Below are positions 429 through 36,428 of a DNA stretch of 36,980 nucleotides, in pieces (within the stretch, counting starts at the first letter, position 1; the number at the start of each line of letters is the position of its first letter). Position numbers and translations under genes: made by a program. The DNA is from an uncultured Pseudomonadota bacterium (GTDB taxonomy: Bacteria; UBA10199; JADFYH01): the NCBI GenBank assembly GCA_964595045.1, contig CAZQOW010000003.1, forward strand, positions 1 to 36,980. Reading direction: 5' to 3'. Under the pieces are notes generated by a model. The model searched no databases and was not told where the DNA came from. It saw nothing but the letters and a program-made list of their open reading frames with translations.

Positions 429-1508
429 ATGAAATCGATTATTCTTTCCTTAAAAAATAAAAAATATCCGATCTACTTTTCTGATTCGAAAAATCGACTC
501 GGTCAAATTCTTTCAAAAAATTTTCGATCTTCCAAATGGATTGTTGTCACCAATCCAACCGTTGATAAACTTTATGGATCAAAGATTCGCAAAGAGCTGA
601 AAGGTTTGGGAGAGGTCGCGACTGTTTTAATTCCAGACGGCGAACAATTTAAAACTCTTCAAACCGTCGAGAAAATCTACCAGCAATTTTCAAACAATAA
701 AGTCGATCGAAAAACTCCTATCGTTGCGCTTGGAGGAGGGGTTGTTGGCGATGTGGCTGGTTTTGCTGCGGCGACTTATTTGAGAGGAATTCCACTCATC
801 CAAATTCCAACCACTTTGCTTTCACAGGTCGATTCGAGTGTCGGCGGAAAAACCGGAGTTGATTTATCGTTCGGGAAAAATTTGGTCGGAGCTTTTTATC
901 AACCGCATTTAGTTTGGATTGATACCGAATATCTTTCCACACTTCCTCGTCGTGAAATATTAGGTGGAGCGGCCGAGGTGATCAAGTATGGTGCGATACG
1001 AAGTCCATCGCTCTTTGCCCTTTTAGAAAAAAGAATAGAAGATTTTTTGGATCTGAATCCCTCCCTCATCCAAAAAATTATCCATGAATGTGTGCAGATC
1101 AAGGCAGAGGTAGTCGAAGAGGATGAAAAAGAGACCAAAGGGGTTCGGGAAATTCTCAACTTTGGACACACTTTGGGTCATGCGATTGAAACAGTTTCCA
1201 ATTACAAAATTTACAATCATGGAGAAGCGATCTCGATTGGAATGGTTTTCGCTGCAGAGCTTTCGGAACAGCTCGGCTTGTTGGGTCGAGAAAGTTCTGA
1301 CCGGTTGAAAGATCTTCTCCAAACTGCAGCGCTTCCCAGTAAGGTTCCCGATTATCCTCTCAAAAAATATCTGGAGGCGATGAGTCTTGATAAAAAAATG
1401 AATGCTGGAAAAATACGGTATGTATTGTTGAAAAAAATTGGAGCGACACAAGTCAAAGAATTAGAGTTAAAAGAGGTTGGAAAAGTATTAACCCGATTTT
1501 TAAAATAA
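429..1508 (+). CDS. aroB: 3-dehydroquinate synthase
   Basis: 359-aa ORF carrying GGGVVGDVAGFAAATYLRGIPLIQIPTTLLSQVDSSVGGKTGV, NFGHTLGHAIE and HGEAISIGM, the standard DHQ synthase nucleotide and metal motifs. It is adjacent to aroK. Confidence 0.95.
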   Translation: MKSIILSLKNKKYPIYFSDSKNRLGQILSKNFRSSKWIVVTNPTVDKLYGSKIRKELKGLGEVATVLIPDGEQFKTLQTVEKIYQQFSNNKVDRKTPIVALGGGVVGDVAGFAAATYLRGIPLIQIPTTLLSQVDSSVGGKTGVDLSFGKNLVGAFYQPHLVWIDTEYLSTLPRREILGGAAEVIKYGAIRSPSLFALLEKRIEDFLDLNPSLIQKIIHECVQIKAEVVEEDEKETKGVREILNFGHTLGHAIETVSNYKIYNHGEAISIGMVFAAELSEQLGLLGRESSDRLKDLLQTAALPSKVPDYPLKKYLEAMSLDKKMNAGKIRYVLLKKIGATQVKELELKEVGKVLTRFLK

Positions 1509-1509
1509 T

Positions 1510-4500
1510 TTATCCGCCATCTTGATCTCGATAAATATGAATTTGCCGATCAGGAAAAATATTTTCAAGATCGATGGACGGAAAAGGCTTTTCCTGATGA
1601 TGTTTTCCATCGGGTAAATAAATTTCTTCATTAGGAATTTGAAGACTTATTCCATCTAAGCGAACTGCTTGTTGCAACCATTCACCAAATCGAAGTTCAT
1701 CTGAATAAAGATTGTCTCCTCGAAGACTGATGCGATTTCTCCTTTTTCTTTCTCTTCCTTTGTTGAATCCGAGTTCTATAATCATTCGGCCACCAATTCT
1801 CTTCTCGCCTGCTTGTGGTAGCACCAAATTCGCAATTAAAAACTGGCCATAGATCATCGGGTTTACTAATTCTCCAGAGGTATTATTTGTAGTTGGCTCA
1901 GTGGGGCGTTGACAGGTGAGAGTTGGATAAAGTCCGCGAACCATGAAAACAGTTGGGTCTGCAGTAATCTCTACGTGTCCATCTGGAATCATAGTTTTCT
2001 TTGCCTGATTGATTTCTTCCAAAGATTTAATCAGAGTTTTGAAGAGAGGAATCAGTTCAAGATAAGTCTCTGGAAGAAGAGTCCTTAAAAGTGAAGCATG
2101 ATCTGAAAAAAAACGGATGATCCCCTGAACTGATTGTTGATTGACCGGTTTTTCCTCATGCATCATTACTAAAGTGTTCGCAAAAAGGGACAGTACTCTT
2201 CGAAAGTCAGGGAGTTTTGGTTTTAGAGCCTCTGCCACTTTGTCAGTTAACCATTGTTGATGCAGAAGACGTTCAACCTCTTTCAAAGAGGTTGGAAAAT
2301 AAGTAGTAAAAGCGCCACTCGGTAATGCAAATGCCCCTTGTAATTTTTTTAAAGTCTGCTGATAAGCTCCGCGACGGCGTTGTTCGGGGGTGACGATTCC
2401 TAAACTTTCAACAATTTCTCTGAGAGAGTATCTTCTTGTTTTTCCCCACTTCTCGATGAGTGAAGGAGGAACTCCCATCGATTGTAAATAATCATATCTT
2501 TCTTTTATCACTACCTGTCCTTCTTCAATTCTCGCTCCAAGGAGTTGATCGGTAAAAATTTGCAAAGCGGAAAGACCGGTTTCGTCGGAGAATTGTGCGG
2601 CAATTCCCAGATAGTGAAAAAAATTATTTTGGGCAAACAGCTCAGAATTATTTCGATAAATTTCTAGTAATTTTTCTTTTTCCGAATCTGAAAGCTCCAA
2701 TGTTGTCATCAATGGATCGAGTAGTCTTTTGCTAAAACTGTCTCGTAAACGGTGAATTTCTTCTTCAATAACCCTTTCTTCCAATTGAAAATGGTTCATT
2801 GTATCGATTGCTACTTCGTGTGCGGCACCGAACTCACTCATTAATCCTTGAAATAAAACCCATCTCTTTCGAGTTTCCTTATTCTTATGTTCCGCAACAG
2901 GAAGACGTTCGACAAGATCTGAAATGAGTCTTCCAGATTTTCCATCTCTTTTTACCATAAAGCAGATGACATAAGTCGAGCGAAGAAAGTCAAGAGAGTG
3001 CCGATAAACTGAAATTGCGTTTTTTAATTTGTCACTTGTTTCACTTGGCAGTTCGTCGGTCTGGGCAATCACGTCATCCAAACGTTCCTGAGTTAAATGC
3101 TCTTTTGAGCCTAAAATAGTTTTGAGGAGCGAGGAGGCAATCATCGGAGTTTTTGGAATCGAAAAAGCGGCCGGAACATCTTTGGCAATTAACTCGTAGG
3201 CAGCCTTAATAATGGATCCATAACTTTCGGATTCAAGAAAATCTTCGAGAATGGCGAAATCTCTAAAGTGTAATTCGGATGTCTCAATAATCTCAGCGAC
3301 TATTTGAATGATTTCTTTCGGCGGCTTTTCTCTTTTGTAATGATCGATTTCTCTTTTGAAAGTTATAAAAAATCCCCAACTCAAAAGAGCTTCTCTGTTC
3401 GGAGATAAACTGGCAAGTTCACCTAGGAATTGGCTCATTCGTCTGAGTAGGCGAAAGTTTGCTATCTGTTCTTGAGGCGAATCAGAACACTCAATGCGAA
3501 TAGCAAAAAGGGAAAATTTATCCCCAATGCGAGCGTCTTGATAAGCTGGATCTTGTTTTTCCAATCCTTTTTTAAATTCTTCAAAAAACGGAGCATTTTC
3601 ATTCTGTCTAAACATTTCTTCAATAATGTCGACTGCTTCGGTTTCTTCTCGACGACATAAAATCCTCAATTGGTCTTCAATAGAAACTGCCTGAATCACC
3701 CGGTGAAACCATCTTGGGTCAGCCATTTCTTCGTCCATAATTTTATGCATGAGTGAGCTGTCATAACTCTTTAATTCATGTGTCTGACTGATATCTTCTT
3801 GTTGATGTTCCTCAAAATATTCGTCAAATTTTTCTTTAACTCCAGATCTCCAGGTAAAATCGAAACCGTGTTCTACTTCAAATCCCAAGATGTTCTGAAC
3901 AAAATGATCAAAAATTTTATGGTACTTTTCTCTTTTTCCAATTTTCTTGGCGGTTACTTTAGGAGCCGGCGTGACTTTGTGTTGCTGAGTAAATTGACAG
4001 AGAATCGCAAGGGATGGATCGGAATTTAAATCGGCCCAAAACGGTTCTGTGGCAGGAATTCTTTTAAGAGCGGCAGCGATAAAACTCTTCATTTGCTGAT
4101 CTTGAAAGCGATCAGAATGAGTCTCTGCCATATGTTTCAGAAGTTGTGGAAGATCAGAAACAGGAATTTTCCCCAATCCTAAAAATGCACCCATCCAATC
4201 TCCTTTTGAAATTTGGGTCAGAATAGGATGATTTGAAAAGCTACTTTCTTCTCTTGCTCCACCCCCTTTTGTAAAACAGGCTTGAGCTTTTTGATGAACT
4301 TCTTCTCGAATTTCAGAAAATACGACCCCTTCAGGAGTGGCTAATTCCTCCATTCCGTAAAATAAGGATCGGCGAGGAATCCGAGGTTTATGATTGGAGA
4401 AATTGGTTTTATATAATTCTTTCTTCAAGGAGAAAATTGCCTGATTCTCGACCACTCCCGGAATAAAATGACAAATCTCTCCGCTGATATGCATCTGAAA

Positions 4501-5034
4501 AGCTACAGCGCGTGCATGCATCCATCTTTCCGTTATTCCAATATTCTGAACTTCCCGGAGTTGTAGGGTTTCAAAGGTGAAATCGACCCCCATGACTGCA
4601 CAATCTTGGGCAATCCAACTGACGATTAAATTGGAATGGGTATATTTTCCTACGACACGAGAGAGACCGATCACCAAAGCTCCATGTCCTGTTCCAATTC
4701 CAAAGGTAGAAAATGATCCCCCCTCTTGAATCATCGGGAATCCGGCAAAAAATCCCCCTTCCGTGAGGATACCAGCGAGAGAAGAGAGATGAGGAACTGC
4801 TTGGGCAAAACGGGAGGTCGAAAAGGTGGTGAGAGAGGTAAGAGATCGAAAACAGGTAAGTTCGACTGTTCTAGCAACTGCACCACCAGCGACTAAACTA
4901 AATAATGTTAGAGGGTTGCACGCTTCGCTCAACACACTTTGAATCATTTGAGAACAGGAAAGTTGCAGAGCGGTGAGTCTATATTCCTCTTCTTCTTGGA
5001 TTGAAAATATTTCAGAACGAATTGAAAACACCAT
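1510..5034 (-). CDS. large hypothetical protein (about 1,174 aa), no recognisable domain
   Basis: Uninterrupted ORF 1510..5127. The GTG at 5127 has no SD, and the first 31 codons (MIKPFFCFLATFFKNLRFIII...) look like translated spacer. The in-frame ATG at 5034 has AAGGA 11 nt upstream, so I place the start there. I found no P-loop, HExxH or GxSxG. Residues about 60-200 are Gly/Ala/Ser/Thr-rich and hydrophobic (LVAGGAVARTVELT, GGFFAGFPMIQEGGSFSTFGIGTGHGALVIGL). Confidence 0.75.
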   Translation of the reverse strand: MVFSIRSEIFSIQEEEEYRLTALQLSCSQMIQSVLSEACNPLTLFSLVAGGAVARTVELTCFRSLTSLTTFSTSRFAQAVPHLSSLAGILTEGGFFAGFPMIQEGGSFSTFGIGTGHGALVIGLSRVVGKYTHSNLIVSWIAQDCAVMGVDFTFETLQLREVQNIGITERWMHARAVAFQMHISGEICHFIPGVVENQAIFSLKKELYKTNFSNHKPRIPRRSLFYGMEELATPEGVVFSEIREEVHQKAQACFTKGGGAREESSFSNHPILTQISKGDWMGAFLGLGKIPVSDLPQLLKHMAETHSDRFQDQQMKSFIAAALKRIPATEPFWADLNSDPSLAILCQFTQQHKVTPAPKVTAKKIGKREKYHKIFDHFVQNILGFEVEHGFDFTWRSGVKEKFDEYFEEHQQEDISQTHELKSYDSSLMHKIMDEEMADPRWFHRVIQAVSIEDQLRILCRREETEAVDIIEEMFRQNENAPFFEEFKKGLEKQDPAYQDARIGDKFSLFAIRIECSDSPQEQIANFRLLRRMSQFLGELASLSPNREALLSWGFFITFKREIDHYKREKPPKEIIQIVAEIIETSELHFRDFAILEDFLESESYGSIIKAAYELIAKDVPAAFSIPKTPMIASSLLKTILGSKEHLTQERLDDVIAQTDELPSETSDKLKNAISVYRHSLDFLRSTYVICFMVKRDGKSGRLISDLVERLPVAEHKNKETRKRWVLFQGLMSEFGAAHEVAIDTMNHFQLEERVIEEEIHRLRDSFSKRLLDPLMTTLELSDSEKEKLLEIYRNNSELFAQNNFFHYLGIAAQFSDETGLSALQIFTDQLLGARIEEGQVVIKERYDYLQSMGVPPSLIEKWGKTRRYSLREIVESLGIVTPEQRRRGAYQQTLKKLQGAFALPSGAFTTYFPTSLKEVERLLHQQWLTDKVAEALKPKLPDFRRVLSLFANTLVMMHEEKPVNQQSVQGIIRFFSDHASLLRTLLPETYLELIPLFKTLIKSLEEINQAKKTMIPDGHVEITADPTVFMVRGLYPTLTCQRPTEPTTNNTSGELVNPMIYGQFLIANLVLPQAGEKRIGGRMIIELGFNKGRERKRRNRISLRGDNLYSDELRFGEWLQQAVRLDGISLQIPNEEIYLPDGKHHQEKPFPSIDLENIFPDRQIHIYRDQDGG

Positions 5035-5155
5035 TGTATTTCTTTTCCTTTTTCTAATCGGTTGAATAATGATAAATCGGAGGTTTTTAAAAAAAGTTGC
5101 GAGAAAACAAAAGAATGGTTTAATCACTCATCTGAAATTATTATAAGGAAATCCT

Positions 5156-10729: not shown

Positions 10730-11398
10730 ATGAAATCCACCAAGAAAAACCAATTACAAACCCGAGAAGTGGTCTCTGATTTTGAAAGTAAAATTCAGAC
10801 AATTCAGCTTCAACTTGAAAAGATCAGGGTAAAAGGGGAAACTATTTTGTCGAACCCAAAAGCTGCTTATCTTCTTCCCGCATTAAAAGAATTAATTATT
10901 CAAAACAGTCTTCATCCTGAAAAACTCAAAGAGCTTGATCAAAATTTTTTGGAAAAAGAATGCAAAGAAAATTATCTTTCGCTTTATTTCCAAGACCTGA
11001 TTGAATTGGCAAAAGTGGCGGATCAAAAAGAATTTTCATTTGAAGCCGATTGGCTTTTAAAAATCACCGAAGAGCAGAGCCGATTTTTCGCCAATCGCGC
11101 ACCGTTCTGGCTCGGCATTGCAAATCTGTTTGCACGAATTTATCTACAGGCAACGATCGAGGATTTTATGGAGCAGTCGACTCAAGAGCTGCAAGAGATG
11201 GTGAGAAACAGTCCCAATGCTTATCATCCAATTCTTTGGCATATTCTTTTTACCGATTATATTCAGCAGAAAACGGAGTTTTTGGTTTCGAATTTGGCAA
11301 AGTTGGAAACGCAAGAGGCGGGGTTGAATCCTCAGGGGATCTATTATACTTTGAGGGAGTTAAGGCTTGCGATTCCAATTTTTAGTTTGGTTCGATGA
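10730..11398 (+). CDS. hypothetical protein (222 aa), all-helical by composition
   Basis: ATG preceded by GAAGGAG. Codon usage resembles the housekeeping genes here (TTG, TCG, GCG, CGA). No recognisable family. Confidence 0.65.
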   Translation: MKSTKKNQLQTREVVSDFESKIQTIQLQLEKIRVKGETILSNPKAAYLLPALKELIIQNSLHPEKLKELDQNFLEKECKENYLSLYFQDLIELAKVADQKEFSFEADWLLKITEEQSRFFANRAPFWLGIANLFARIYLQATIEDFMEQSTQELQEMVRNSPNAYHPILWHILFTDYIQQKTEFLVSNLAKLETQEAGLNPQGIYYTLRELRLAIPIFSLVR

Positions 11399-11628
11399 AG
11401 AGGTGGTTTCATGCATATCGGTATTTATGAAATTCAAAAGGGTTAAAAAATGTATTTTTCTTACCAAGGTCGGACAGTTATTTTTTTCCAAATCCTAGAC
11501 TCTTGAGGAGAGGAACCAGGGGGATGGGATTTCTAGTGACGAATTATGGCTTATTTTTAAAGAAACTTTTGAGGCTAAGGGCCGATAATAAAAACATATG
11601 GTAAATCCATTTAAAAAAGGGAAATTTT

Positions 11629-12954
11629 ATGACAGATATTAATAAAATACTTTCCGATTGGCACAATGATGTAACTCAGAAATCCTCTCCAGGAGGCACC
11701 CAAGTTACTCCTGAAGAAATCGATAAACTTGCTAAGCAATTTGTCTCTCAGGGAATTCCAGATGAAAAGAGTTTAGATCAATATTTACGAACTTACTCCA
11801 CACAAACTGACTTATATTTAGAAACATCTCCAAGAGGAGAAGATGAAGTACTTTCAATTAGACATTCCGATTTCATTCAGGAAGCAATTCAAATAGCTAG
11901 AGGAAGTAAACAAATTCCTTTTTTAAGAGGAAATATTGTACAAGCAATTCAGTCAGCAAAATTAGAAGAATTTGGTATGACTCGCGGCAGAGATACTTGG
12001 TATCTTCTGACAAGCCAAGATGGACAAATTAAAATTAAGGTGACTCCTTTTGCGACTTATAATGAACACGGAACCGCATCAGAAGATGGGTTTTTGGTAA
12101 GAGCTTATGAACAAGGAAGTCTACGCAAACTTTCTTCAGAAGCACTCTCAGCACTTGCTCAAAAAGTTAATATCGACCAAGCAGAACTCAAGCAAGATTC
12201 TGATGTTTCTCACCCTGCTCATTATACTTGGTATGTTGGTTATTCTGCTTTATGGAGACCTCAAGTTTCTAAACTTCAAAATAACATTCATCAACTTGAT
12301 GCTAAATCTGCTCAAAAGCAGTATCAAGCTCTTTTAAGTGAACATGTTAAACGAACTTCTGTAATAGAGCTTCCTTCAATAATTTACCAATTAGGAGAAT
12401 TAGCGGGACACTCTAGAAGTTATGTCAACCAAGAGTTCGGACGACAAAGAAAAGCTAATAATGGACAAGTTGCGAATCAAATTACCACAGACATCCAGCA
12501 GGGTAAAATCGCTTCTTACGAGATTCTACATGCCTCTCGCGAGGCTCTACGTGCAGTTCCGGTTGGAATTTATCGTGCCGCAATTTTAGCTAATGTAGAA
12601 AACGCAAAATCTTTTTCAGCTCTAAGTTATTCTCTTCAAAGCGGAATGTATGCAGGAGATATCATTAACCTTGTTCACGTATTAAAAGAAAATGGAGTAA
12701 TGTCTGATTTCAGTTTTATTCTTACTTCTAAAAAAATGTGGAGTGCCATTGAAGAGGCTCTCAAATCAAAAGAGAGAGACCAAGTATCTAATGTCGCCGG
12801 TGTAATAGAAGGACTAAGAGAAATTATAGGAATAAAAAAATTAGAAAAAGATTCGAACTTTCAAAAAGTGAAGTCTATAGCAAGAGAACAGGATTCCCAG
12901 GTAAGTGAATGGGAGACTTCTCTTAAAAGTGCGTACCAATTAATTTTAAATTAA
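11629..12954 (+). CDS. hypothetical protein (441 aa), compositionally foreign
   Basis: Long uninterrupted ORF. Its codon usage is clearly different from the neighbours (GCT/GCA, TCT/TCA, AGA, ATA, GTA, TTA versus the neighbours' GCG/GCC, TCG, CGT/CGA, ATT/ATC, GTT/GTC, TTG). No recognisable motif. Confidence 0.75.
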   Translation: MTDINKILSDWHNDVTQKSSPGGTQVTPEEIDKLAKQFVSQGIPDEKSLDQYLRTYSTQTDLYLETSPRGEDEVLSIRHSDFIQEAIQIARGSKQIPFLRGNIVQAIQSAKLEEFGMTRGRDTWYLLTSQDGQIKIKVTPFATYNEHGTASEDGFLVRAYEQGSLRKLSSEALSALAQKVNIDQAELKQDSDVSHPAHYTWYVGYSALWRPQVSKLQNNIHQLDAKSAQKQYQALLSEHVKRTSVIELPSIIYQLGELAGHSRSYVNQEFGRQRKANNGQVANQITTDIQQGKIASYEILHASREALRAVPVGIYRAAILANVENAKSFSALSYSLQSGMYAGDIINLVHVLKENGVMSDFSFILTSKKMWSAIEEALKSKERDQVSNVAGVIEGLREIIGIKKLEKDSNFQKVKSIAREQDSQVSEWETSLKSAYQLILN

Positions 12955-12955
12955 T

Positions 12956-12977
12956 TTTTGGTACACTTTTGGTACAC
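12956..12977 (+). repeat. perfect tandem direct repeat 2 x TTTTGGTACAC (11-nt period)
   Basis: TTTTGGTACAC at 12956-12966 is repeated exactly at 12967-12977, immediately after the stop codon of the 441-aa gene. Confidence 0.6.
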
Positions 12978-13018
12978 ATAGAAAAGATTGAAAAATAAAG
13001 AAGTATTTTGAAAAAAAG

Positions 13019-13077
13019 TTCTTTTTTACTCCTCTCCAACTTTCAATTTAAAAAAATCCAAAGATCAGTTAATCTCC
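13019..13077 (+). repeat. copy A of the mpl upstream region (segmental duplication)
   Basis: TTCTTTTTTACTCCTCTCCAACTTTCAATTTAAAAAAATCCAAAGATCAGTTAATCTCC matches 14936-14994 with 2 mismatches. Confidence 0.85.
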
Positions 13078-13205
13078 TAAAACTATAAACTAGTACCCTA
13101 TCCATTTATTCTCACATTAGGGTCACGGCACAACTGTTTGTCATCCATTTAATATTTTTAGATAGGACAGCTGAAATTAAATGGAACAAGCAGTAGGAGA
13201 TTTCT

Positions 13206-13800
13206 ATGTCTTTTCATGTTCATTTTATTGCGATCTGCGGAACCGCGATGGCAACTTTGGCCGGAATGCTGAAAGAAAAAGGTTTTCATGTGACCGGAAG
13301 CGATCAAAATGTCTACCCTCCGATGAGCGATCAGTTGAAGAAATGGGGGATTGAGATCGAGCAAGGATTCCGAGCCGAAAATCTGAATCCTCTTCCCAAT
13401 TTGGTTATTGTCGGGAATGCGGTTTCGAAAACAAATCCTGAAGTTGAAGCGCTTCTCCAATCCAAAATTCGCTATTTATCTCTTCCTCAAGCGATCGGAG
13501 AATTTTTTTTAAAAGAGAAAAAGTCGCTTGTGGTTGCGGGGACTCATGGAAAAACGACTACCACTTCTTCTTGCCTGGATGCTGTATTCTCTCCAATCCG
13601 ATCCAAGTTTTTTGGTCGGGGGAATTCCTGAAAATTTTCATTCCTCCTACCGTTTGGGAAATGGAGAGCTTTTTGCGATTGAAGGGGATGAATATGATTC
13701 AGTTTTTTTTGATAAGGGGCCGAAGTTTTGGCATTATCAGCCGAATCAGGCGATTATCACCGGAGTTGAGTTTGATCATGCCGATATTTACCGCGGTTTA
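13206..13800 (+). pseudogene. mpl: truncated, frameshifted 5' fragment of mpl (first ~198 codons)
   Basis: Aligns base for base with 15019-15615. I count about 40 substitutions by eye, plus a 2-nt deletion near 13567 (CCACTTC--TTCTTGCC versus CCACTTCACTCCTTGCC). The deletion splits it into ORF-track frames 13206..13631 and 13528..13929. Homology ends abruptly at 13800. Confidence 0.9.
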
Positions 13801-13992
13801 CACTTTTTTTTGGTGCCAGGCACGCATAGAAGAGATTGCAATCGGAATATAAAACGGCTGATATTCGATAAGGCTAGGTTTGCAGCCGGTTCATTCAAAG
13901 TTTGTCTAAAAGCAAATTGTGAATTGTAGATTTTTTGTATCTTCAAATTTATTTGTTCTTAAGAAAACGACACTTCTTGACTGGAGAGAACG

Positions 13993-14607
13993 ATGAGCAG
14001 AATTCTAGACCTTTATTCCCAATTGACCTTGTTCTACAAAGAAAATGCCCCCTCCATTTTTGATGAGGACTATATTTTTCCTCCGGCGACCGAGGAAGAT
14101 CTAAAAGCGATTGAAACCATACTGGTTGAGAAAATTCCTCAGGACTATCGAGAATTTTTACAAATCAATACCATTCCTTTTAGCTTTGACGGTAGCTTCA
14201 CATGCTTATCGGCCAAAGCCGTTTTAGGATACTACAAAAGCATGACAGAAATGTTGCAGGAAGGGGTTTTTGACGATGGTCGCGTTCAATATCATAAAGA
14301 AAACGGTTTTGGAAACTGGGAGAAAGGCTACATCCAGGAGGTATGGTGGAGCGAAAAGTGGCTCCCGATCTCGGCAGATAGTTGTGGCAACTTAAAGTGC
14401 ATCGATTTTGCTCCGACAAAGAAAGGTAAAAAATATCAAATCTTGTCCATGGAAGTGCAAGATGGTCAGGGTCCATTTATTTCCAATTATAAAAACTTTG
14501 AGGAGTATTTGTCAGAACACTTATTTCTATTACAAAATAATAAATACATGTTTGAAGAAGACTGGAAAGGCCGGCAGATGATTTCACCGAATCGCTATAA
14601 AAGTTAG
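13993..14607 (+). CDS. SMI1/KNR4 (SUKH-1) family protein, immunity-protein type
   Basis: Has both hallmark blocks: ATEEDLKAIETILVEKIPQDYREFLQINT near the N-terminus, and WLPISADSCGNLKCIDF. SD GGAGAG lies 6 nt upstream. C-ending codons (GAC, TAC, ACC, AGC, GGC) are commoner than in neighbouring genes. Confidence 0.85.
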   Translation: MSRILDLYSQLTLFYKENAPSIFDEDYIFPPATEEDLKAIETILVEKIPQDYREFLQINTIPFSFDGSFTCLSAKAVLGYYKSMTEMLQEGVFDDGRVQYHKENGFGNWEKGYIQEVWWSEKWLPISADSCGNLKCIDFAPTKKGKKYQILSMEVQDGQGPFISNYKNFEEYLSEHLFLLQNNKYMFEEDWKGRQMISPNRYKS

Positions 14608-14633
14608 AAAAATAAGTCTATAGAAGGGATATC

Positions 14634-14670
14634 AACTAAAGTGATTTTGGATTTCATGTTCATATTACAT
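14634..14670 (+). other. eroded relic of the mpl RBS/start region
   Basis: AACTAAAG-tGATTTTgga-TTTCATGTTCAT aligns with AACTAAAGaataggaGATTTTatgtctTTTCATGTTCAT at 14998-15036. The match consists of an exact 8-mer, 6-mer and 12-mer in the same order. Confidence 0.5.
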
Positions 14671-14884
14671 GGATAAAATATTACTCAAGAGATGGTGATG
14701 AGTTTGAAGGAGACGCGGACTATCATTAAATTTCGAAGAGACCCTTGGCTTGGGATAAAATGAGCTTACTTTTTAAGTTACATTCTGATCTATCCATTCA
14801 GCCAACGTTGTTAGCGGCAACTTATGTATAAATCTTATCTTAGAAAGTTAATTCTAATCCTTACTTTAATTTTGATAATTAAAT

Positions 14885-14898
14885 ATCAGTTAATCTCC
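14885..14898 (+). repeat. isolated copy of the 14-nt core ATCAGTTAATCTCC
   Basis: Exact copy of 13064-13077 and 14981-14994. The following ~30 nt (TACTAAAAAATTAGTGCC) resemble the sequence after copy A (TAAAACTATAAACTAGTACC). Confidence 0.5.
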
Positions 14899-14935
14899 TA
14901 CTAAAAAATTAGTGCCTGTGAATAATAAGAAAAAC

Positions 14936-14994
14936 TTCTTTTTTCTTCCTCTCCAACTTTCAATTTAAAAAAATCCAAAGATCAGTTAATCTCC
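14936..14994 (+). repeat. copy B of the mpl upstream region (segmental duplication)
   Basis: Matches 13019-13077 and lies directly upstream of the intact mpl gene. Confidence 0.85.
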
Positions 14995-15018
14995 CAGAAC
15001 TAAAGAATAGGAGATTTT

Positions 15019-16428
15019 ATGTCTTTTCATGTTCATTTTATTGCGATTTGCGGAACTGCGATGGCAACCTTAGCTGGAATGCTGAAAGAAAAAGGGTTTC
15101 ACGTGACCGGAAGCGATCAAAATGTTTATCCGCCGATGAGCGATCAGTTGAAGAAATGGGGGATTGAGATCCAGCAAGGATTTCGAGCTGAAAATCTGAA
15201 TCCTCTTCCCAATTTGGTTATTGTCGGGAATGCGGTTTCGAAAACAAATCCTGAAGTTGAAGCGCTTCTGCAATCCAAAATTCGCTATTTATCTCTTCCC
15301 CAAGCGATCGGGGAGTTTTTTTTAAAAGAGAAAAAGTCTCTCGTGGTTGCTGGAACGCATGGGAAAACGACTACCACTTCACTCCTTGCCTGGATGTTGT
15401 ATTCTCTTAAATCCGATCCAAGTTTTTTAGTCGGTGGAATTCCAGAAAATTTTCATTCTTCCTACCGTTTGGGAAAGGGGGATTTTTTTGCGATCGAAGG
15501 GGATGAATATGATTCTGCTTTTTTTGATAAGGGACCAAAGTTTTGGCATTATCAACCGAATCAGGCGATTATCACTGGGGTTGAGTTTGATCATGCCGAT
15601 ATTTACCGCGATTTAGATCATCTGATGAATTCGTTTCAAAAGTTTGTCGAACTGATTCCACCCAATGGAAAACTTTTTCTCTCGTCAGATAATGAGAATG
15701 TTTTGAAGCTAAACTCTTATGCGCGATGTCCGATCATTACTTACGGATTAAACCATGAATCGGATATCCGCGCTGAACAGATTGTTTTTGATCGGGATGG
15801 AGTGGAGTTTGCGTTGTTTGAAAATAGAAATAAGTTGGGAGTTTTCCGCTCTCCGCTCTCCGGAAAACATAATCTTCAAAATTTGCTGGGAGTTCTCGCC
15901 TTATGTTTGAATTTAGGATTTGCTCCTGAAACATTGCAGGCTCCGATCCTCGAATTCAAAGGGGTAAAGCGTCGCCAGGAGATCCGCGGTGTGGTAAATG
16001 GGATCACAGTCATTGATGATTTTGCACACCATCCAACGGCGGTTTTAGAAACGATTGATGCGATTCGAAATCGTTATCCAAACCAAAAAATATGGGTCGT
16101 TTTTGAACCGAGATCGAATACGAGCCGTAGAAGTATCTTTCAGAATGATTTTGTGAAAGCGTTTCTACATGCCGATGAGACGATTATTGCGGATGTTTTT
16201 ATGCCGGAGAAAGTGAAAGATGTTCCATTGCTCAATGTGAATCAGCTGATCCAAGAGATTCATCAGCAAGGGGGCAAAGCAGTGGGTGGAATGAAAGTCG
16301 AAGAGATTGTTTCTTATTTGGGAAAAAATGTGAAAAGTCATGAGGTGATTTTGATTATGAGTAATGGGGGATTTGAGAATATTCATGAGAGATTGCTTGA
16401 GAGATTGCAACAAAGCTCCTCCTCTTAA
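15019..16428 (+). CDS. mpl: UDP-N-acetylmuramate:L-alanyl-gamma-D-glutamyl-meso-diaminopimelate ligase (murein peptide ligase)
   Basis: 469-aa Mur-ligase protein. The N-terminus [36 protein letters not shown] matches the Mpl-specific pattern (ICGTFMGGLA...GSDANVYPPMS in E. coli, from memory). It also has the P-loop [11 protein letters not shown] and DDFAHHP. Confidence 0.92.
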   Translation: MSFHVHFIAICGTAMATLAGMLKEKGFHVTGSDQNVYPPMSDQLKKWGIEIQQGFRAENLNPLPNLVIVGNAVSKTNPEVEALLQSKIRYLSLPQAIGEFFLKEKKSLVVAGTHGKTTTTSLLAWMLYSLKSDPSFLVGGIPENFHSSYRLGKGDFFAIEGDEYDSAFFDKGPKFWHYQPNQAIITGVEFDHADIYRDLDHLMNSFQKFVELIPPNGKLFLSSDNENVLKLNSYARCPIITYGLNHESDIRAEQIVFDRDGVEFALFENRNKLGVFRSPLSGKHNLQNLLGVLALCLNLGFAPETLQAPILEFKGVKRRQEIRGVVNGITVIDDFAHHPTAVLETIDAIRNRYPNQKIWVVFEPRSNTSRRSIFQNDFVKAFLHADETIIADVFMPEKVKDVPLLNVNQLIQEIHQQGGKAVGGMKVEEIVSYLGKNVKSHEVILIMSNGGFENIHERLLERLQQSSSS

Positions 16429-16446
16429 GATTAAGAGGAGGTTTTA
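16418..16446 (+). terminator. REP-like hairpin family C acting as a likely intrinsic terminator of mpl
   Basis: Perfect 10-bp stem CCTCCTCTTA (16418-16427) / TAAGAGGAGG (16432-16441) with loop AGAT, followed by TTTT. The stem contains the mpl stop codon (TAA 16426-16428). Confidence 0.5.
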
Positions 16447-16460
16447 GAGGAGTTGTGAAA

Positions 16461-16482
16461 AACGTTGCAGATCTCCAACGTT
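16461..16482. repeat. hairpin AACGTTG-N8-CAACGTT
   Basis: 7-bp perfect stem with an 8-nt loop (CAGATCTC), lying between the two family C hairpins. Confidence 0.5.
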
Positions 16483-16497
16483 CATAACGCCCCCTAA

Positions 16498-16520
16498 CCC
16501 CCTCTTACCTTAAGAGGGGG
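16498..16520 (+). promoter_or_regulatory. REP-like hairpin family C whose 3' arm is the tamB Shine-Dalgarno region
   Basis: Perfect 10-bp stem CCCCCTCTTA (16498-16507) / TAAGAGGGGG (16511-16520) with loop CCT. The purine run GAGGGGGG ends 6 nt before the TTG start at 16528. Confidence 0.55.
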
Positions 16521-16527
16521 GACTTCT

Positions 16528-19500
16528 TTGGGAAACTATTTGAAAAAATCATACAAAAAATTGTGGATTGTTTTTTTCGTTCTATTGGCGATTACCTCGA
16601 GTTTCCTTTACTGGTCTCTTTATACCAAACATGGTTTTCAGAGTACTTGGGGGAGATTGGCCCGTCTTGTTCCCGGTTCGCTTCGATGGGATGATTTGAA
16701 TCTGGATTTGGCTCATCAATCGATCGAGGTGAAAGGTTTAAGTTATACTTTGCCGGAAGGAATAAAGCTGGTTGATCTGCATCATTTTAAGGCCCAGATC
16801 CGGTTAAGCTCGGTTTTTCGATTGAAAGCGATTTTTAAACTTTTTGAAATCGATGGGCTTTCGTTTGATCTTTCGAATGTTCAACCGAGAAAAGAGGGAA
16901 AGTTTCCCTCCGATCTGATTCGCGAATTGAGTAAAAGAATTTCGATCAATCAAGGAGAAATTAAAAATATTTCCATCCAATTGAAAAATGGAACCGTTCG
17001 CTTTCCTTTAATCCGTCTGTATTATCAGTCGCATACGCTTGGAAATCATTGGATGAAATTTTCCCTATTGAATAGTGAGGGAGAATTGGCTCATCAACCT
17101 TTGTCAGTCGATGAAATAAGTTACGAAGGGGAGTTTTCATTTCCGCAAGAAACCAAAAATTTTTTCTCTCTCAAACATGCAACCGGTAAATTGAATTTAA
17201 AAGGGGCACATTTTGGGAAATGGAATTTATCCGATTTTTCTACTCAAGCCGTTTTTGATGGTGAGGAGATTGATTTTAAGGGGATCGATTTAAAAATAGG
17301 AGAAAATCGTTATCAGTTGAAATTGAAGTTTGCCCCGATCGCTCAAAGGGCAAAAGGGGAATTTTCCTCCGTTGATTGGGTGAAGGTTGAACAACTTCCC
17401 GGCTTGAATGAGCACGCTCGAAGCACTTTCGAAAAAACAAAATTTTCTCTCCAATTTAATCTAGTCGGTTTCACTCCGCAGGAGATGCAGGGAACTATTG
17501 CTCTCGATTTGAAAGCGAATAATAATTATTTAAACCCTAAAACACCCAACCTCTCTATCCAACTTTCTTCCAAAATAGAAAAAGGGAGATTTGATTTAAC
17601 CAAATTTCAGATTCAGAGCGAAAAAACTTTACTCACCGGAAAAGGTTTTGTCGATTTTGCGAAGATGGAATTGAAAGTTCCCATCGAAGGAAAAGCGATT
17701 GATTTGAAAACGCTGATATCTTTTTTCTCCGATCAGGAGATTGTCGGTTACGCGGATGTGACCGGAGAAATAGCCGGAAAATTGACACTTCCAGATTTTA
17801 AGTTTCATGGAAAAGCGTCAGAAGCAGGATATAAGTTTCTTAAATTTGGTGAAATCGTTGGCGACTTCGATATTTTAAAAGGGGATATGCATTACAAAGG
17901 AAAAACTCCTCCCAATTCCCCTTTTGTGGGAGATGTTGATGTCGCAGTAAATGGAATTTTCGATAATGATAAAAGACATGCGATATTGAAAGTGAACTTC
18001 AATAATCTCGATGCAACTACATTGCTTGAAAATACAGATATCCAAGGAAAAATCAGCGGATTTTATGAAATGGATGTTTTTCACGACAGCAAAAAAGGGA
18101 AACTGGTTACTCATGTAAAAGATTTTAAGATGTATCAATTTCATGTCGGCGATATGGAAGTTGAAGGAGATCTAAAAAATAATGATTTCATCTTTCCAAA
18201 AATTAATTTTCAACCACCCAATTATCAAAAAATTTCCATGCCTCGTCCGGTTGAATTTCATTTCAGTGATCAGGGATTCAAATTCAAAGGTTCTCCTTTT
18301 CAGGGGATGGATACCGAAGGGGGATATGTTTATACTCGACAAAACGTTTTAAATATCCAAACGAAATGTCACCAATGTTCTATTGCTCCACTTCTCGCTG
18401 CGCTTGATCAGAAACCAATCGAAGGAATTATTAATGCGAAGATGGATATGGATCTTTTGATCGGGAATTTTCAAAATTCCAAAATGTTGACTGAGATTGA
18501 TTTTTTCGAAATTCCGATCGGAGACAATAAGTTAACCAATTCCGGAGTTCTCAAAATTGGTTATCGCCAAGGTTCTTTTCATTTTGACCAAGTGAGTTTG
18601 GCTTTGAATGAGCAAATATTAAAAATACAGGGTTCTTTTTCCACAGAAGGGGCTCTGAATCTGCAGGTCAATGGTTCTCCTGACCTTGCGATTTTGAAAA
18701 TGTTTCCTCTCTATTTTCGGGATGCCGGAGGGGCCACCCAAGCAGATCTTTCCGTGAAGGGAAATATGAAAGAGCCGCTGGTCTCTGGTGCGATTACATT
18801 TAAGGGAGGATTCATTTTGCCTCGAGCCCTAGGAAATACCATCGAGAACTTAAAAGGAAAAATCGCTCTCGATTCTCAAAAGATAAATTTTGAAAATCTC
18901 GAAGGGACCATTTTGGATGGGGATGTGAAAGTTTCAGGGAGTTTGTGGCATGAGCAGTTCAAAATTAAAAAAGCTGATTTGAAAGCTGAGTTTCAAGAGA
19001 TTGCGTATACGGAACCTGCAGTGTTGAAACTGACTTTTTCCGGAAAAATGACTCTGACAGGAAGCGACCCACATCTGCTTCTAGCAGGAGATCTTGATAT
19101 AACGCAGGGAAGATATATCAAAAATTTTGATATCAAGAATTATATTATTAAGCCGGCCCCTGTTCCGTCGTCTCAGGACGTGGGAAATTTATTTGAGAAT
19201 ATTAATATTGATCTTCGAATCAAGAGTCCGGGAGAGTTTTTGATTAGAAATAATATCGCCGAGATTTATCTGAAAAGTGATCTTCATATTACTGGTAACA
19301 AATCGAATCCAAAATATGAGGGAGCGTTAGAAGTTCTTGATGGAAGTTTTCACTATTTTAAGATCAATTTTAGTAATGCAAAAGGGGTGATTGACTTCAG
19401 AGATGCATCAAGAAAAGATCCCTATGTTGATATCACGGCGCAGAATCTTTTTGAACGTCCTTCCGGTGATTATGTGGTGATTGCCCATGTTCAAGGATTT

Positions 19501-24984: not shown

Positions 24985-26256
24985 ATGAAAAAACTAGGTT
25001 TAGTTGCTTTAGTGGCAACGCTTGTTTTGTCAAGCGCTGTCTCACTGAAAGCTGCAGACAAAAAAGGATCTCCAGGTGGTTTGGAGCTCAGTGGTAACGT
25101 CGATGTGGTCACCGGTTGGCAGCATGATAGTAAAAATGCCGATACATTCGTCGGAACCAATGGAACGAATGCTATCGTCAGTACTATTAACGATGCTGAT
25201 AACGCAGGCTTGCTTGGAGAAGGTCAATTGGGCGACTTTAGAGGTCTTGGTTCTCCAAGAAGAGATACATTCAACTTCTACCTTGATCAAGTGGAGCTCG
25301 ATCTTAATAAAACTTTCGGAGAAAACATTCGATTAAGAGCAGATCTTGATTTTGGTCGTTTCTTGTCGGGTTCTCAGCGGGTCACAGGAAGCAATAATTT
25401 CCTTTTAGAGCAAGGTTATGTGACTGCCAATATTCCTCTCGGAAATGGAGTTGAGTTCTTGATTGGTCGTTATAATGTCCCTCTTGGTCTTGAATCAGTC
25501 GATCGTGCAGAAAACATTACACTTTCATACACCAATCTTTATCGCTTCATTCGCCCACATAACGTCACAGGTGCAAAAATCTATTATGCATTTAGTGATG
25601 TTTTTGATTTGCATATTGGTGTAGTAAACAATCTTTATGATAGTATTTTTGGTGTTGGAACTTCAAATGCCAATAATGACACTCCTGTTCCTTCTTATCA
25701 TGCTCGATTCGGTTTCACTTGGGGAGAAAAAGGAAAAGAGCATGTTGTTGGTCTTTCCTATGCGGGTGGACCAGAAGGTGTTGTTCCTCATTTAGTGGGC
25801 GGAACATTAGTTTCTCAAAACCTAGAAAGACATTTTACTCACATTGCTGATATCGATTATTCCTTCCATGTTACCGATGCATTCGTTATCGCAGGTGAAG
25901 CAATCTACAGACAAGATAATAAAAACGGTGGAGCTTGTAATTCGCTCACCAAAAATTGTAAATCATGGGCTGGTCAAGCAACCTTTGCTTACAATTTTAA
26001 TGAAACTTGGAATGGATATTTCCGATATGAATATCTCCATGATTTCCAAGGAAACTACACAAACGTAGATCAGCAGATTCATGCGTTTAGTTTAGGTGCA
26101 GGTTATCAAATTGCAGATGGCGCAAAGATGAAATTAGAGTATCAGTTAGATCTTGGCCTTCCAGCAAGAAATATTGCAAAGCAAACAGCCTATTCTACCT
26201 ATGGTAGAACTTATTGGAATAATGCTTTCGCACTTGAATTTGCTTATAATTTCTAA
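24985..26256 (+). CDS. outer-membrane beta-barrel porin (uncharacterised family), paralogue 1
   Basis: Signal peptide MKKLGLVALVATLVLSSAVSLKA, strong SD AAGGAGAGG, amphipathic beta-strand periodicity, and the C-terminal signature FALEFAYNF. It is clearly paralogous to 26848..28074 (GLE[LI]SG.VD.V[TS]GWQHD, SP.RDTF..YLD.VE[LI]DL.K[TS]FGENIRLR.DLDFGR). Confidence 0.8.
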   Translation: MKKLGLVALVATLVLSSAVSLKAADKKGSPGGLELSGNVDVVTGWQHDSKNADTFVGTNGTNAIVSTINDADNAGLLGEGQLGDFRGLGSPRRDTFNFYLDQVELDLNKTFGENIRLRADLDFGRFLSGSQRVTGSNNFLLEQGYVTANIPLGNGVEFLIGRYNVPLGLESVDRAENITLSYTNLYRFIRPHNVTGAKIYYAFSDVFDLHIGVVNNLYDSIFGVGTSNANNDTPVPSYHARFGFTWGEKGKEHVVGLSYAGGPEGVVPHLVGGTLVSQNLERHFTHIADIDYSFHVTDAFVIAGEAIYRQDNKNGGACNSLTKNCKSWAGQATFAYNFNETWNGYFRYEYLHDFQGNYTNVDQQIHAFSLGAGYQIADGAKMKLEYQLDLGLPARNIAKQTAYSTYGRTYWNNAFALEFAYNF

Positions 26257-26284
26257 GCTTATTTGAATTGAAAGTTGTTAGTAA

Positions 26285-26320
26285 TAAAAAAACCCTGTCG
26301 AAAGACAGGGTTTTTTTATT
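26285..26320 (+). terminator. rho-independent terminator
   Basis: Stem CCCTGTC (26293-26299) / GACAGGG (26304-26310) with loop GAAA, flanked by an A-run upstream and TTTTTTT downstream. Confidence 0.85.
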
Positions 26321-26847: not shown

Positions 26848-28074
26848 ATGAAAAAATATCTCTTTCTTCTTTTTTCTTTTTTGCTTTTAACCATTCCTCA
26901 ATTCTCAAAAGCCGAAGAATCTAAGGCGAAAGGATTAGAGATTTCTGGATTTGTTGATGCAGTAAGCGGATGGCAACATGATGATCATAATGCCTACGGT
27001 AATCCAATTGGTGGACAACTTGGTTGGTTTCGAGGAACCACTTCTCCTGGTCGAGATACTTTTGATACTTATCTAGATGTAGTAGAAATAGACCTCGATA
27101 AAAGTTTCGGAGAAAATATTCGTCTTCGAGTAGATCTTGATTTCGGTCGTGCTCTTTCAGGAACTGGAAGAACAACCGATTCAGGTGGAACTGGAATATC
27201 CAATTTCGAAGTTGAGCAAGCGTACATGACAGCGAATTTAAAGGGAGCTGAGTTTCTCATTGGTCGATTTACTGTTCCAATCGGATACTATGTTTGGCAT
27301 CGTATCGATAATCCATCCATTTCCTTTTCAACTATTTTTAATTACATCACTCCTGCCAATGATACAGGGGCAAAAATATTTTATGCTTTCAAAGAGCATT
27401 TTGATTTCCATATTTATGTCGTGAATAGCTTAGCTGACTCTGCTCCTTTTGGAGTTCTTGCACCCGGCGCAACTCCTGGAACAAAAGGTAATTCCATTAG
27501 TGGAACGACAGTGAATCCGGGAGGATTAACCAATGGTGCATATAGTGCGATTCCCTCCTACGGATCTCGCTTTGGATTTAACTGGGGTAGCGATGCGACC
27601 AAAAGCACAATCGGTATTTCTTACGCAGGAGGACCTGAAAGATATGGATGCAATGAAGCGACCACCGGAATCACCTCTTGTAATAGACATTTAACTCATA
27701 TCGTTGATTTAGATTATGCTGTGAAATTTACCCCAAAATTACTTTTTGCGGGTGAAGGGGTATTTCGTCAGGATAATTCTGATGTCCCGGGAATTCGAAA
27801 TGACCGATCATGGGGAGGATTTGTCCTATTAAATTATGACTTTACGGATGTGTGGAGAATGTTTTTCCGAGGTGGTTTTCTGCAAGATCAAACCGGGTTT
27901 TATACTGGTGCCAATGAAAACATCATAGATTTTGCTTTAGGAGCCGGATATCAAATTACCGATAAAGCAAAATTGAAGATTGAGTATAGTCCGATGATTT
28001 TTGATTCGAGAGTCCCAGGAGTAAAAACTTCTATCTCGAATGGATTTGCGATGGAATTCGGTTATTATTTTTAA
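26848..28074 (+). CDS. outer-membrane beta-barrel porin (uncharacterised family), paralogue 2
   Basis: Signal peptide MKKYLFLLFSFLLLTIPQFSKA, SD AAGGAG, C-terminal FAMEFGYYF. Paralogous to porin 1. Confidence 0.8.
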   Translation: MKKYLFLLFSFLLLTIPQFSKAEESKAKGLEISGFVDAVSGWQHDDHNAYGNPIGGQLGWFRGTTSPGRDTFDTYLDVVEIDLDKSFGENIRLRVDLDFGRALSGTGRTTDSGGTGISNFEVEQAYMTANLKGAEFLIGRFTVPIGYYVWHRIDNPSISFSTIFNYITPANDTGAKIFYAFKEHFDFHIYVVNSLADSAPFGVLAPGATPGTKGNSISGTTVNPGGLTNGAYSAIPSYGSRFGFNWGSDATKSTIGISYAGGPERYGCNEATTGITSCNRHLTHIVDLDYAVKFTPKLLFAGEGVFRQDNSDVPGIRNDRSWGGFVLLNYDFTDVWRMFFRGGFLQDQTGFYTGANENIIDFALGAGYQITDKAKLKIEYSPMIFDSRVPGVKTSISNGFAMEFGYYF

Positions 28075-36293: not shown

Positions 36294-36428
36294 GGGGGAT
36301 TTATTGCGAGGAGTAAAGAAGAGCATTTATTTTTTCACGTTCCCAGCAATAAATTCCTCCCAACCTCGCTCCGTCGGCCTGCTTCGCCAGAGCTTCAGCA
36401 AGGCAAGCATAGCCTTTGGCGACGCTGA

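Follow-up and report, generated by a model that had tools for sequence, protein, structure and literature searches.

Partial duplication of the mpl 5' end around a SUKH gene in an uncultured Pseudomonadota bacterium: a probable scar of recombination between diverged haplotypes

Structure of the mpl locus

The window analysed here is a stretch of 36,980 nucleotides (nt) from an uncultured Pseudomonadota bacterium (assembly GCA_964595045.1, contig CAZQOW010000003.1, positions 1 to 36,980). It carries the 5' end of the cell-wall recycling gene mpl twice. The intact gene is preceded, 1.8 kb upstream, by a truncated and frameshifted copy of its first codons, and a SUKH/SMI1_KNR4 gene lies between the two (Table 1). 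The content of the window is housekeeping: aro genes, hisS, ldcA, ampH, mpl itself, tamB, bamA, a glnA-like gene, tmk and others. An earlier note on this sequence described the duplication and took the fragment for an mpl 5' end imported from a relative. We compared the locus with four close relatives recovered from sequence collections (L001, L018, L019 and L025; Mpl about 95–98% identical in amino acids, aa) and with more distant lineages. The arrangement is probably a scar left when two diverged haplotypes of the same locus recombined.

The intact gene is a true mpl, encoding UDP-N-acetylmuramate:L-Ala-gamma-D-Glu-meso-DAP ligase. In a profile search its product scores 413.9 bits against TIGR01081, above the cutoff of 388.7. 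The MurC model gives 333.4 bits, which is under its own cutoff of 335.1 and under the Mpl score.

The truncated copy (copy A) and the corresponding part of the intact gene with its ribosome-binding site (RBS), at 15008–15615 (copy B), are 92.28% identical over 609 alignment columns, a resemblance that chance does not explain. Over mpl nt 1–597 they differ by 44 substitutions, distributed 4/2/38 over codon positions 1/2/3 (binomial P=5e-13 for the third-position excess against an expectation of 1/3). The earlier note, counting by eye, had given roughly 40 substitutions and 93% identity and had called most of the changes synonymous and at third positions; both statements hold, and the substitutions are not evenly spread over the codon. 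A 2-nt deletion directly after 13566, which the note had placed near 13567, breaks the frame of copy A, and homology ends at 13795–13800, close to the 13800 first given. The two copies have perfect blocks of up to 80 nt in common.

By the method of Nei and Gojobori, the nonsynonymous divergence (dN) between the copies is 0.015 and the synonymous divergence (dS) 0.36, a dN/dS of 0.042. With so much synonymous and so little nonsynonymous change, the sequences indicate that copies A and B come from different lineages and diverged under purifying selection, not as an in-situ duplicate in decay. This agrees with the proposal that both copies were under selection before they were joined. The ratio is 0.011 ahead of the frameshift and 0.08 past it, where functional mpl genes compared over the same segment give 0.00. 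Copy B has four private substitutions, every one synonymous. In copy A the private change A167V alters a near-invariant residue, K153N and D155E are residues used by orthologues, the apparent D198G is the breakpoint itself, and three seemingly private changes, including Q52E, occur also in L025. The low ratio before the frameshift and the variants common with relatives indicate that most of copy A's divergence arose while it was a functional gene of another lineage, with slight decay afterwards.

A 133-aa open reading frame (ORF) at 13528–13929 continues the shifted frame of copy A past the junction and on into spacer sequence, and is most likely meaningless. With this ORF and the upstream region U1 in place, the displaced mpl promoter could drive transcription into the SUKH gene.

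The duplication extends upstream of the start codon. Positions 13019–13077 and 14936–14994 differ at exactly 2 of 59 sites, as the earlier note had counted, and the repeat runs further on both sides (U1 and U2 in Table 1), with a perfect 48-nt block at 13030–13077. By eye, the right part of a spacer segment described below (M) is recognizable at about 14921–14929, ahead of U2. Two features had been missed: an eroded further upstream region (U3) and 108 extra nt in copy A. The 108-nt segment is also present in L001 (91% identity) and L025 and is missing from L018. Eight sites within mpl (nt 30, 108, 111, 114 and 345, plus 78, 324 and 333) split the five sequences in the same way, into a long-U haplogroup (copy A, L001, L025) and a short-U haplogroup (copy B, L018). 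The window holds one mpl copy from each haplogroup.

The 108-nt segment folds into a long imperfect hairpin (−28.8 kcal/mol, z=−3.0). It may serve as a leader or regulatory structure, or be a small insertion. It has no match in Rfam, and as a mobile repeat it was rejected, with no further copies in the compared sequences. An Rfam scan of 11300–15100 found nothing, and a scan for promoters and terminators returned counts equal to the shuffle expectation and is uninformative.

What lies beyond the truncated copy is native to the locus. The 41 nt at 13801–13841 are the start of the spacer that normally separates the gene p222 from mpl, here called M. In L018 and L025, whose sites are empty, this segment comes directly after the p222 stop codon, and in L001 it comes after a 359-aa gene (p359). 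Since these 41 nt are the native spacer start, the inserted DNA is chromosomal DNA of the same locus, and by its sequence it is a piece of another haplotype's version of that locus, with no element ends of its own. The DNA joined to mpl nt 592–597 is the left edge of the series M, SUKH block, short U and mpl from the other haplotype. The SUKH cargo block itself spans 13842 to about 14920 (1.08 kb), is inserted within M, and is missing from L001, L018 and L025.

The 11-nt palindrome GTGCCAGGCAC lies at 13813–13823, where the earlier note had seen it beyond the homology end. It is perfect in the second copy of M and in L025; L018 has it with one mismatch, in L001 it is broken, and the first copy of M has lost it by deletion. 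We rejected it as an element end or recombination site: it belongs to the native spacer and is degenerate or deleted in 3/5 copies. Nor is it a repeated site, with a single occurrence in the window, no commoner than chance.

Table 1. Features of the window around mpl, and the corresponding region in relatives
Feature or genome	Position	Strand	Description
p222	10730–11398	+	222-aa gene; conserved left border of the variable spacer in the species-level clade; 90–92% aa identity in L001, L018, L025
p441	11629–12954	+	strain-specific ORFan cargo gene, 441 aa; between p222 stop codon and spacer M
M1	12955–13012	+	first copy of native spacer start, degenerate, palindrome deleted; aligns with sequence after the p222 stop in L018, L025
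U1	13013–13085	+	mpl upstream (promoter/leader) region, copy 1; 93% identical to 14930–15002
108-nt indel	13086–13193	+	defines long-U haplogroup; between upstream repeat and RBS of copy A; missing from copy B
Copy A	13194–13800	+	RBS and mpl codons 1–198, pseudogene; 2-nt deletion leaves 141-aa ORF at 13206–13631
J1	13796–13800	.	illegitimate junction, mpl nt 592–597 to left edge of M; microhomology only G/TTTA
M2-left	13801–13841	+	second copy of native spacer start, with palindrome; aligns with M of L018, L001, L025 and with M1
SUKH/SMI1_KNR4 gene	13993–14607	+	204 aa; PF09346 at 1.2e-15; inside spacer M
Relic 2 (putative)	14634–14670	+	eroded end of U and mpl nt 1 to ~22–29; 27 nt past SUKH stop codon
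U3	~14863–14910	+	eroded extra upstream region, tandem with U2; from local alignment against shuffles
U2	14930–15002	+	upstream region of intact mpl, short-U type as in L018; from alignment to U1
mpl	15019–16428	+	intact gene, 469 aa; copy B = nt 1–597; TIGR01081, three Mur ligase domains
Right-flank recombination mosaic	15586–16653	+	tracts identical to L018
L018			p222, 150 nt, mpl; empty site, short upstream region
L025			p222, spacer, mpl; empty site, long upstream region with the 108 nt
L001			p222, 359-aa gene, spacer, long upstream region, mpl; gene unrelated to p441
L019			Logan contig; 100% identical to window 11257–13059
L002, L003, L012, L013, L020, L023			ampH-mpl gap empty or near-empty, from overlap of ampH with mpl up to ~200 nt spacing
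L010			gap cargo: ParE toxin-antitoxin pair
L009			gap cargo: Mut7-C and HTH gene
L021			gap cargo: Mut7-C and 297-aa gene
L022			gap cargo: MNT/HepT pair
L008, L016			gap cargo: DUF4160/DUF2442

The gap upstream of mpl, its relics and its flanks

The gene order ldcA-ampH-(p222)-gap-mpl-tamB-bamA is conserved in the 4 close relatives and in >10 distant ones (Mpl 45–68% identical). In the 16 lineages compared, the space ahead of mpl is empty or holds toxin-antitoxin pairs, a SUKH gene or ORFans, and none has a recombinase there. The cargo occupies at least two positions in the spacer, p441 and p359 before M and the SUKH block inside it. Conserved flanks, variable cargo and the lack of a recombinase together argue that the ampH/p222-mpl gap is a clade-wide hotspot for accessory genes that is free of mobile genetic elements (MGEs). 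The earlier note had proposed the mpl 5' end as a recurrent insertion point for cargo and suggested looking for alternative cargo in relatives. Such cargo exists, with L018 and L025 empty, an unrelated 359-aa gene in L001 and varied genes in the wider clade, and relics of the mpl start recur, one of them in L009. The hotspot is the whole ampH/p222-mpl gap, however, and of the roughly 8 occupied gaps only 2 have mpl relics.

The absence of a recombinase from the window, also noted earlier, was borne out: a Pfam search of the 26 largest window ORFs found no recombinase, integrase or transposase domain, and p222, p441 and a 1205-aa ORF, which have no domain, could be novel enzymes. There are no repeats flanking p441 or p359, and synteny places no integrase near the gap of L009. 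We found no N-terminal Mpl fragment in IMG/VR and no mpl 5' fragment on phages or plasmids; the mpl matches in these sets are full-length mpl or murC in mislabelled chromosomal records and were discarded.

The cargo genes themselves give few leads. The product of p441 has no homologue among 5.8e9 clustered proteins, nor in an exhaustive phmmer search of 1.84e9 representatives. The gene is present in L019, an independent Logan contig (SRR23447887) that matches the window without a difference from 11257 to 13059. At its position L001 has p359, which was considered as a relative of p441 and found to be unrelated and without a family, and L018 and L025 have nothing. The bordering gene p222 belongs to no Pfam or NCBIfam family; a match to TnsD (16 bits against a cutoff of 32) was taken as noise, and a single-sequence AlphaFold 2 model (predicted local distance difference test score 39) is unusable. 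The closest homologues of the SUKH protein (43–64% identity) are encoded by solitary genes in housekeeping contexts, never adjoining mpl or toxins, and give no support to a toxin-immunity island, a reading we rejected. The exact SUKH protein and the 141-aa ORF of copy A are not on record, which is uninformative since Logan rarely has this strain's exact proteins.

Beside the main duplication there are smaller traces of the mpl start. The stretch following the SUKH gene had been read as a third, eroded copy of the start region. Its core TTTCATGTTCATATTA at 14652–14667 matches mpl nt 7–22 at 15/16 positions (P about 0.001 against shuffles) and is flanked by matches to AACTAAAG and GATTTT, seen by eye. 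The reading is plausible on this modest support. The local alignment that defines U3 scores 38, and shuffled sequences average 18.9 with a maximum of 31 (0/1000 as high).

A comparable relic occurs in L009, an independent lineage whose Mpl is 63% identical to that of the window. The sequence CATGACCCAACACATTCACCTTATTGCTAT at L009:9407–9436, 19 nt past the Mut7-C cargo gene, matches that genome's own mpl start (L009:10000–10029) at 27/30 positions, scoring 45 where shuffles reach at most 32 (0/500). The opening 12 nt of the relic specify MTQH, the N-terminus found in L021 and L010, and the Mpl of L009 itself starts MSPH. The last 20 nt are identical to the true start and form with it a perfect 20-nt direct repeat around about 570 nt, which contain a helix-turn-helix (HTH)/XRE gene. 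None of the other occupied gaps has an mpl relic, and none of the close relatives L001, L018, L025 and L019 has a second mpl fragment. The two relics in the window and the independent one in L009 suggest that one-sided events ending in the mpl 5' end recur, as a minority outcome.

The flanks differ in their history. On the right, the window is identical to L018 over 15586–15977 (392 nt) and 16283–16653 (371 nt), with 8.5% divergence between the two tracts and 7–10% around them. A mismatch-free run of 392 nt has a chance of 7e-13 at the local divergence, and at the sequence level the tracts directly attest that lineages with about 90% average nucleotide identity have recently exchanged DNA by homologous recombination. 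Ahead of the tracts, copy B differs from L018 at 39/567 sites. The right flank also has incompatible site patterns. The left flank is 8–10% diverged among all genomes, with the window 9–10% from every relative, and has no identical tracts; mosaic tracts occur on the right flank only, in a comparison confined to this locus.

These patterns bear on the direction of import. Copy A is collinear with the arrangement in L001 and L025, the 108-nt segment included. The evidence leans towards a recent exchange of the right side (SUKH gene, short U, copy B and the 3' part of mpl) with an L018-like lineage. Considering the collinearity of copy A, the tracts that copy B's side has in common with L018 and the diverged left flank, the direction first proposed may be reversed: the 5' end of the intact gene may be the import, and the fragment the resident's displaced end. 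Of the claim that the fragment came from a relative, the separate lineages stand and the direction is not established. The fragment groups with the long-U genes of L001 and L025, and four relatives leave the imported side unsettled. The start of the L018 tract, at mpl nt 568, lies about 30 nt short of the boundary of the duplication. We judged this coincidence unremarkable (about a 1-in-10 chance), because 2.7 kb contain 4–5 tract boundaries and clustering of crossovers beside a hotspot is expected.

Several observations concern other parts of the window. A 3.6-kb segment at 1492–5155, between aroB and the next conserved gene, encodes the 1205-aa protein without a Pfam domain (ORF 1510–5127, minus strand); its counterpart in L001 is only about 60 nt, suggesting a second site of strain-specific insertion. 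At 36271–36367 the window has a palindromic element of about 95 nt (CCCCCTTTGAAAAAGGGGGATTAAGGGGGATTTATTGCGAGGAG ... GCAATAAATYCCTCCC) that recurs, in a different genomic place, at L001:3136–3228; a portion of the element is also present within the coding region of mpl in L010 (L010:3751–3829). The Mpl orthologues P0003, P0006, P0008, P0014, P0015 and P0020 have P/S/G/E-rich insertions of about 10–40 aa at the same linker position, which may be in-frame insertions of such palindromic repeats, recalling the Rickettsia palindromic elements. Two tandem paralogous genes for BBP2/OmpL-like porins (24985–26256 and 26848–28074) have a 53-nt stretch at 85% identity; the 38-nt palindrome at 26283–26320, directly past the first of them, is probably a terminator.

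Origin of the arrangement

We read the window as probably a partial merodiploid scar in the MGE-free hotspot, where two diverged haplotypes would have been joined by one homologous and one illegitimate crossover. Haplotype P would have carried p441, M, the long U and mpl, and haplotype Q would have carried M, the SUKH cargo, the short U and mpl. The illegitimate joint would connect mpl nt 592–597 of P to the left edge of M of Q, with 1–5 nt of microhomology, and the second join would be one homologous exchange between P and Q. The locus holds both kinds of trace, 670 nt of duplicated homology and a junction J1 that shares only G/TTTA. Donor and recipient can be told apart, with the copies in two haplogroups and the SUKH block missing from L001, L018 and L025.

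Two routes could produce this structure. A circularized 1.8-kb fragment consisting of M, SUKH, U and mpl 1–597 could have integrated by a Campbell-type single crossover. Alternatively, a linear fragment anchored in one flank (mpl/tamB or p222/ampH) could have entered by homology-facilitated illegitimate recombination (HFIR). The products are identical, and the routes are not separable with four relatives. The Campbell-type layout suggested in the earlier note fits a single crossover of the kind that leaves duplications of 109–950 bp (PMC3240628), and linear HFIR would give the same product. The event would have been tolerated because an intact promoter and mpl were retained, and the displaced 5' copy would later have acquired the frameshift and at least one damaging substitution. 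The older relics (14634–14670 and about 14863–14910) and that of L009 would be recurrent one-sided by-products of cassette turnover, which would otherwise proceed by ordinary homologous recombination in the flanking genes. The sequences show the structure, the separate lineages of the two copies, the native spacer as partner at the junction, the varied content of the gap and the mosaic flank; the order of events, the topology of the DNA (circular or linear), its entry route and the imported side are inferred. The copies have perfect blocks of up to 80 nt in common, through which recombination could remove the cargo again, and the arrangement is therefore expected to be metastable.

Some points weigh against this account. 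The collections, which contain only four close relatives, have no example of either parental haplotype (P, which would have an intact A-type mpl, and Q, which would lack the fragment). The continuity of the contig across the repeats is that of the assembly, the account presumes natural competence or another route of DNA entry in an uncultured host, and HFIR is rare in experiments (PMC5361080). In addition, relic 2 and the relic of L009 have almost coincident ends in mpl (nt about 22–29 and nt 29), the contexts of both endpoints in the window resemble TTAYYGCGATTT by eye, and three junctions (p441 with M, p359 with M in L001, and truncated mpl with M) fall at the left edge of M. The recurring junctions and endpoints hint at a site preference that random illegitimate joining does not predict.

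The alternative that survives best, though we consider it unlikely, is an in-situ tandem duplication of M, U and mpl 1–597 by illegitimate sister-strand exchange, followed by allelic replacement of one copy from a diverged strain, with separate events for the cargo and the 108-nt indel. A junction with microhomology only would fit such an exchange, U3 and U2 look like an old local tandem duplication, and the population is mosaic, as the L018-identical tracts of 392 and 371 nt amid about 7–10% divergence attest. The account nevertheless takes more steps. The units differ throughout (44 substitutions, the 108-nt indel and the 1.08-kb SUKH block), conversion would have to swap a complete unit exactly, and 600-nt repeats that were identical at first would be very unstable.

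An assembly artefact, in which two co-occurring strain haplotypes were mis-joined in a metagenome assembly, is still less likely. The window resembles a contig of a metagenome-assembled genome (MAG), and both haplogroups of the copies exist in nature. L019 stops at 13059, where a k=31 graph branches on entering the 48-nt block common to U1 and U2, which fits two strains and a true repeat equally. A chimera cannot create the joint of mpl nt 597 with M, however, as no k-mer is shared there (about 5 nt are common), and a molecule with truncated mpl joined to M must exist. The frameshift and A167V are as expected of a real pseudogene, and an analogous relic is present in an unrelated assembly (L009).

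We give little credence to the idea that the mpl promoter and first codons serve as a portable targeting arm, or contain a site near codon 10 (CAYATTCAYYTTATTGCKAT / TTAYYGCGATTT) resembling an attachment (att) site, for small non-autonomous cassettes that would use a trans-acting or host recombinase and re-supply the 5' end. If true, it would be an integrase-less 5'-end counterpart of the islands that target tRNA genes or dusA, and would account for relics in two lineages whose Mpl are only 63% identical. Least probable is the remnant of a site-specific integrative element at the mpl 5' end, of the type of the dusA islands or SXT in prfC, its integrase lost or acting in trans. The topology is that of the dusA islands, with the original 5' end at the outer boundary and a new one fused to the gene (PMC4482086), repeated site-specific integration typically leaves nested relics, the endpoints of relic 2 and of the relic in L009 lie close together in mpl (nt about 22–29), and L009 has a perfect 20-nt direct repeat around about 570 nt; yet there is no integrase in 37 kb or, by synteny, near the L009 gap, the far end consists of native spacer M, which the empty sites of L018 and L025 also have, endpoints vary (nt 592–597, about 22–29 and before the ATG in the window; nt 29 in L009), the duplicated stretch of 600 nt is unlike a short att site, IMG/VR, phage and plasmid collections hold no Mpl fragment, and cargo sits at differing spacer positions.

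If the locus is a scar of recombination between two haplotypes, it is a clean natural example of how accessory genes can enter a chromosome without mobile-element machinery. Crossovers between diverged strains would have captured a SUKH gene, and the dated scar that they left would be a 5' pseudogene with a synonymous-dominated divergence that marks its foreign origin. Such scars could be used to count one-sided recombination events in uncultured populations and to flag metastable loci, where recombination of the 600-nt repeats would remove the cargo. They also call for care when MAGs are annotated and binned: a gene duplicated in part, at 92% identity, can be genuine, and short-read graphs break at such duplicates.

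Comparison with known systems

SXT in prfC is an island that supplies a new 5' end to its target gene. The genomic islands specific to dusA have the same outline as the window, with the original promoter and 5' fragment, cargo, and a new promoter and 5' end fused to the gene (PMC4482086). The dusA and prfC islands carry a tyrosine integrase at the junction, an att site of about 21 bp at a fixed position and an element-specific far end, unlike the window, which has none of these.

The displacement arrays of type VI secretion system (T6SS), rhs and cdi loci also keep nested remnants of gene ends beside an intact gene, with a gene of the SUKH type (an immunity family) among them, and an HFIR-type mechanism has been proposed for them (PMC5361080). 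What is displaced in these arrays is the 3' tip of a toxin gene along with the cognate immunity gene, and the orphans are retained for the immunity that they give. In the window, by contrast, the 5' end of a housekeeping ligase is displaced, there is no toxin domain, and the pseudogene has no evident function. The comparison of the locus to a 5'-end mirror image of rhs/cdi displacement, drawn in the earlier note, fails on these grounds: mpl is a housekeeping gene without a toxin, and the fragment is a frameshifted pseudogene.

The minimal mobile elements of Neisseria embody the concept of cassettes between conserved genes. Many hotspots are without MGEs, and their flanking core genes have elevated recombination (Oliveira et al., 2017; PMC5635113). 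The gap upstream of mpl resembles both in its conserved flanks, in holding different cassettes or none, in having no integrase, insertion sequence or att site, and in its mosaic flanking core gene. It differs in that one exchange was no clean double crossover and left a 670-nt partial duplication of the right flank; the host is uncultured, and the mosaic tracts are on the right flank only.

The closest parallel for that one exchange is HFIR or single-crossover insertion-duplication. In an Escherichia coli HFIR screen, 56/60 recombinants had locus duplications of 109–950 bp, which a circular molecule had produced by a single crossover (Amarir-Bouhram et al., 2011; PMC3240628). Kirchberger et al. 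(2017; PMC5361080) invoke HFIR to explain immunity arrays and nested remnants of effectors at Vibrio T6SS and rhs loci, in a paper whose references to HFIR include de Vries and Wackernagel (2002), Prudhomme (2002) and Meier and Wackernagel (2003). The window agrees with these systems in combining a homologous with a minimal-microhomology junction, in a duplication of about 600 nt, within the range of 109–950 bp, and in the foreign cargo between the copies. Unlike the experimental events, it is a natural case read from sequence, its 'vector' would be a chromosomal fragment of the same locus from another haplotype, and its copies differ by 7% because donor and recipient had diverged. We regard the scar as a further case of a known process and not as a new mechanism or system.

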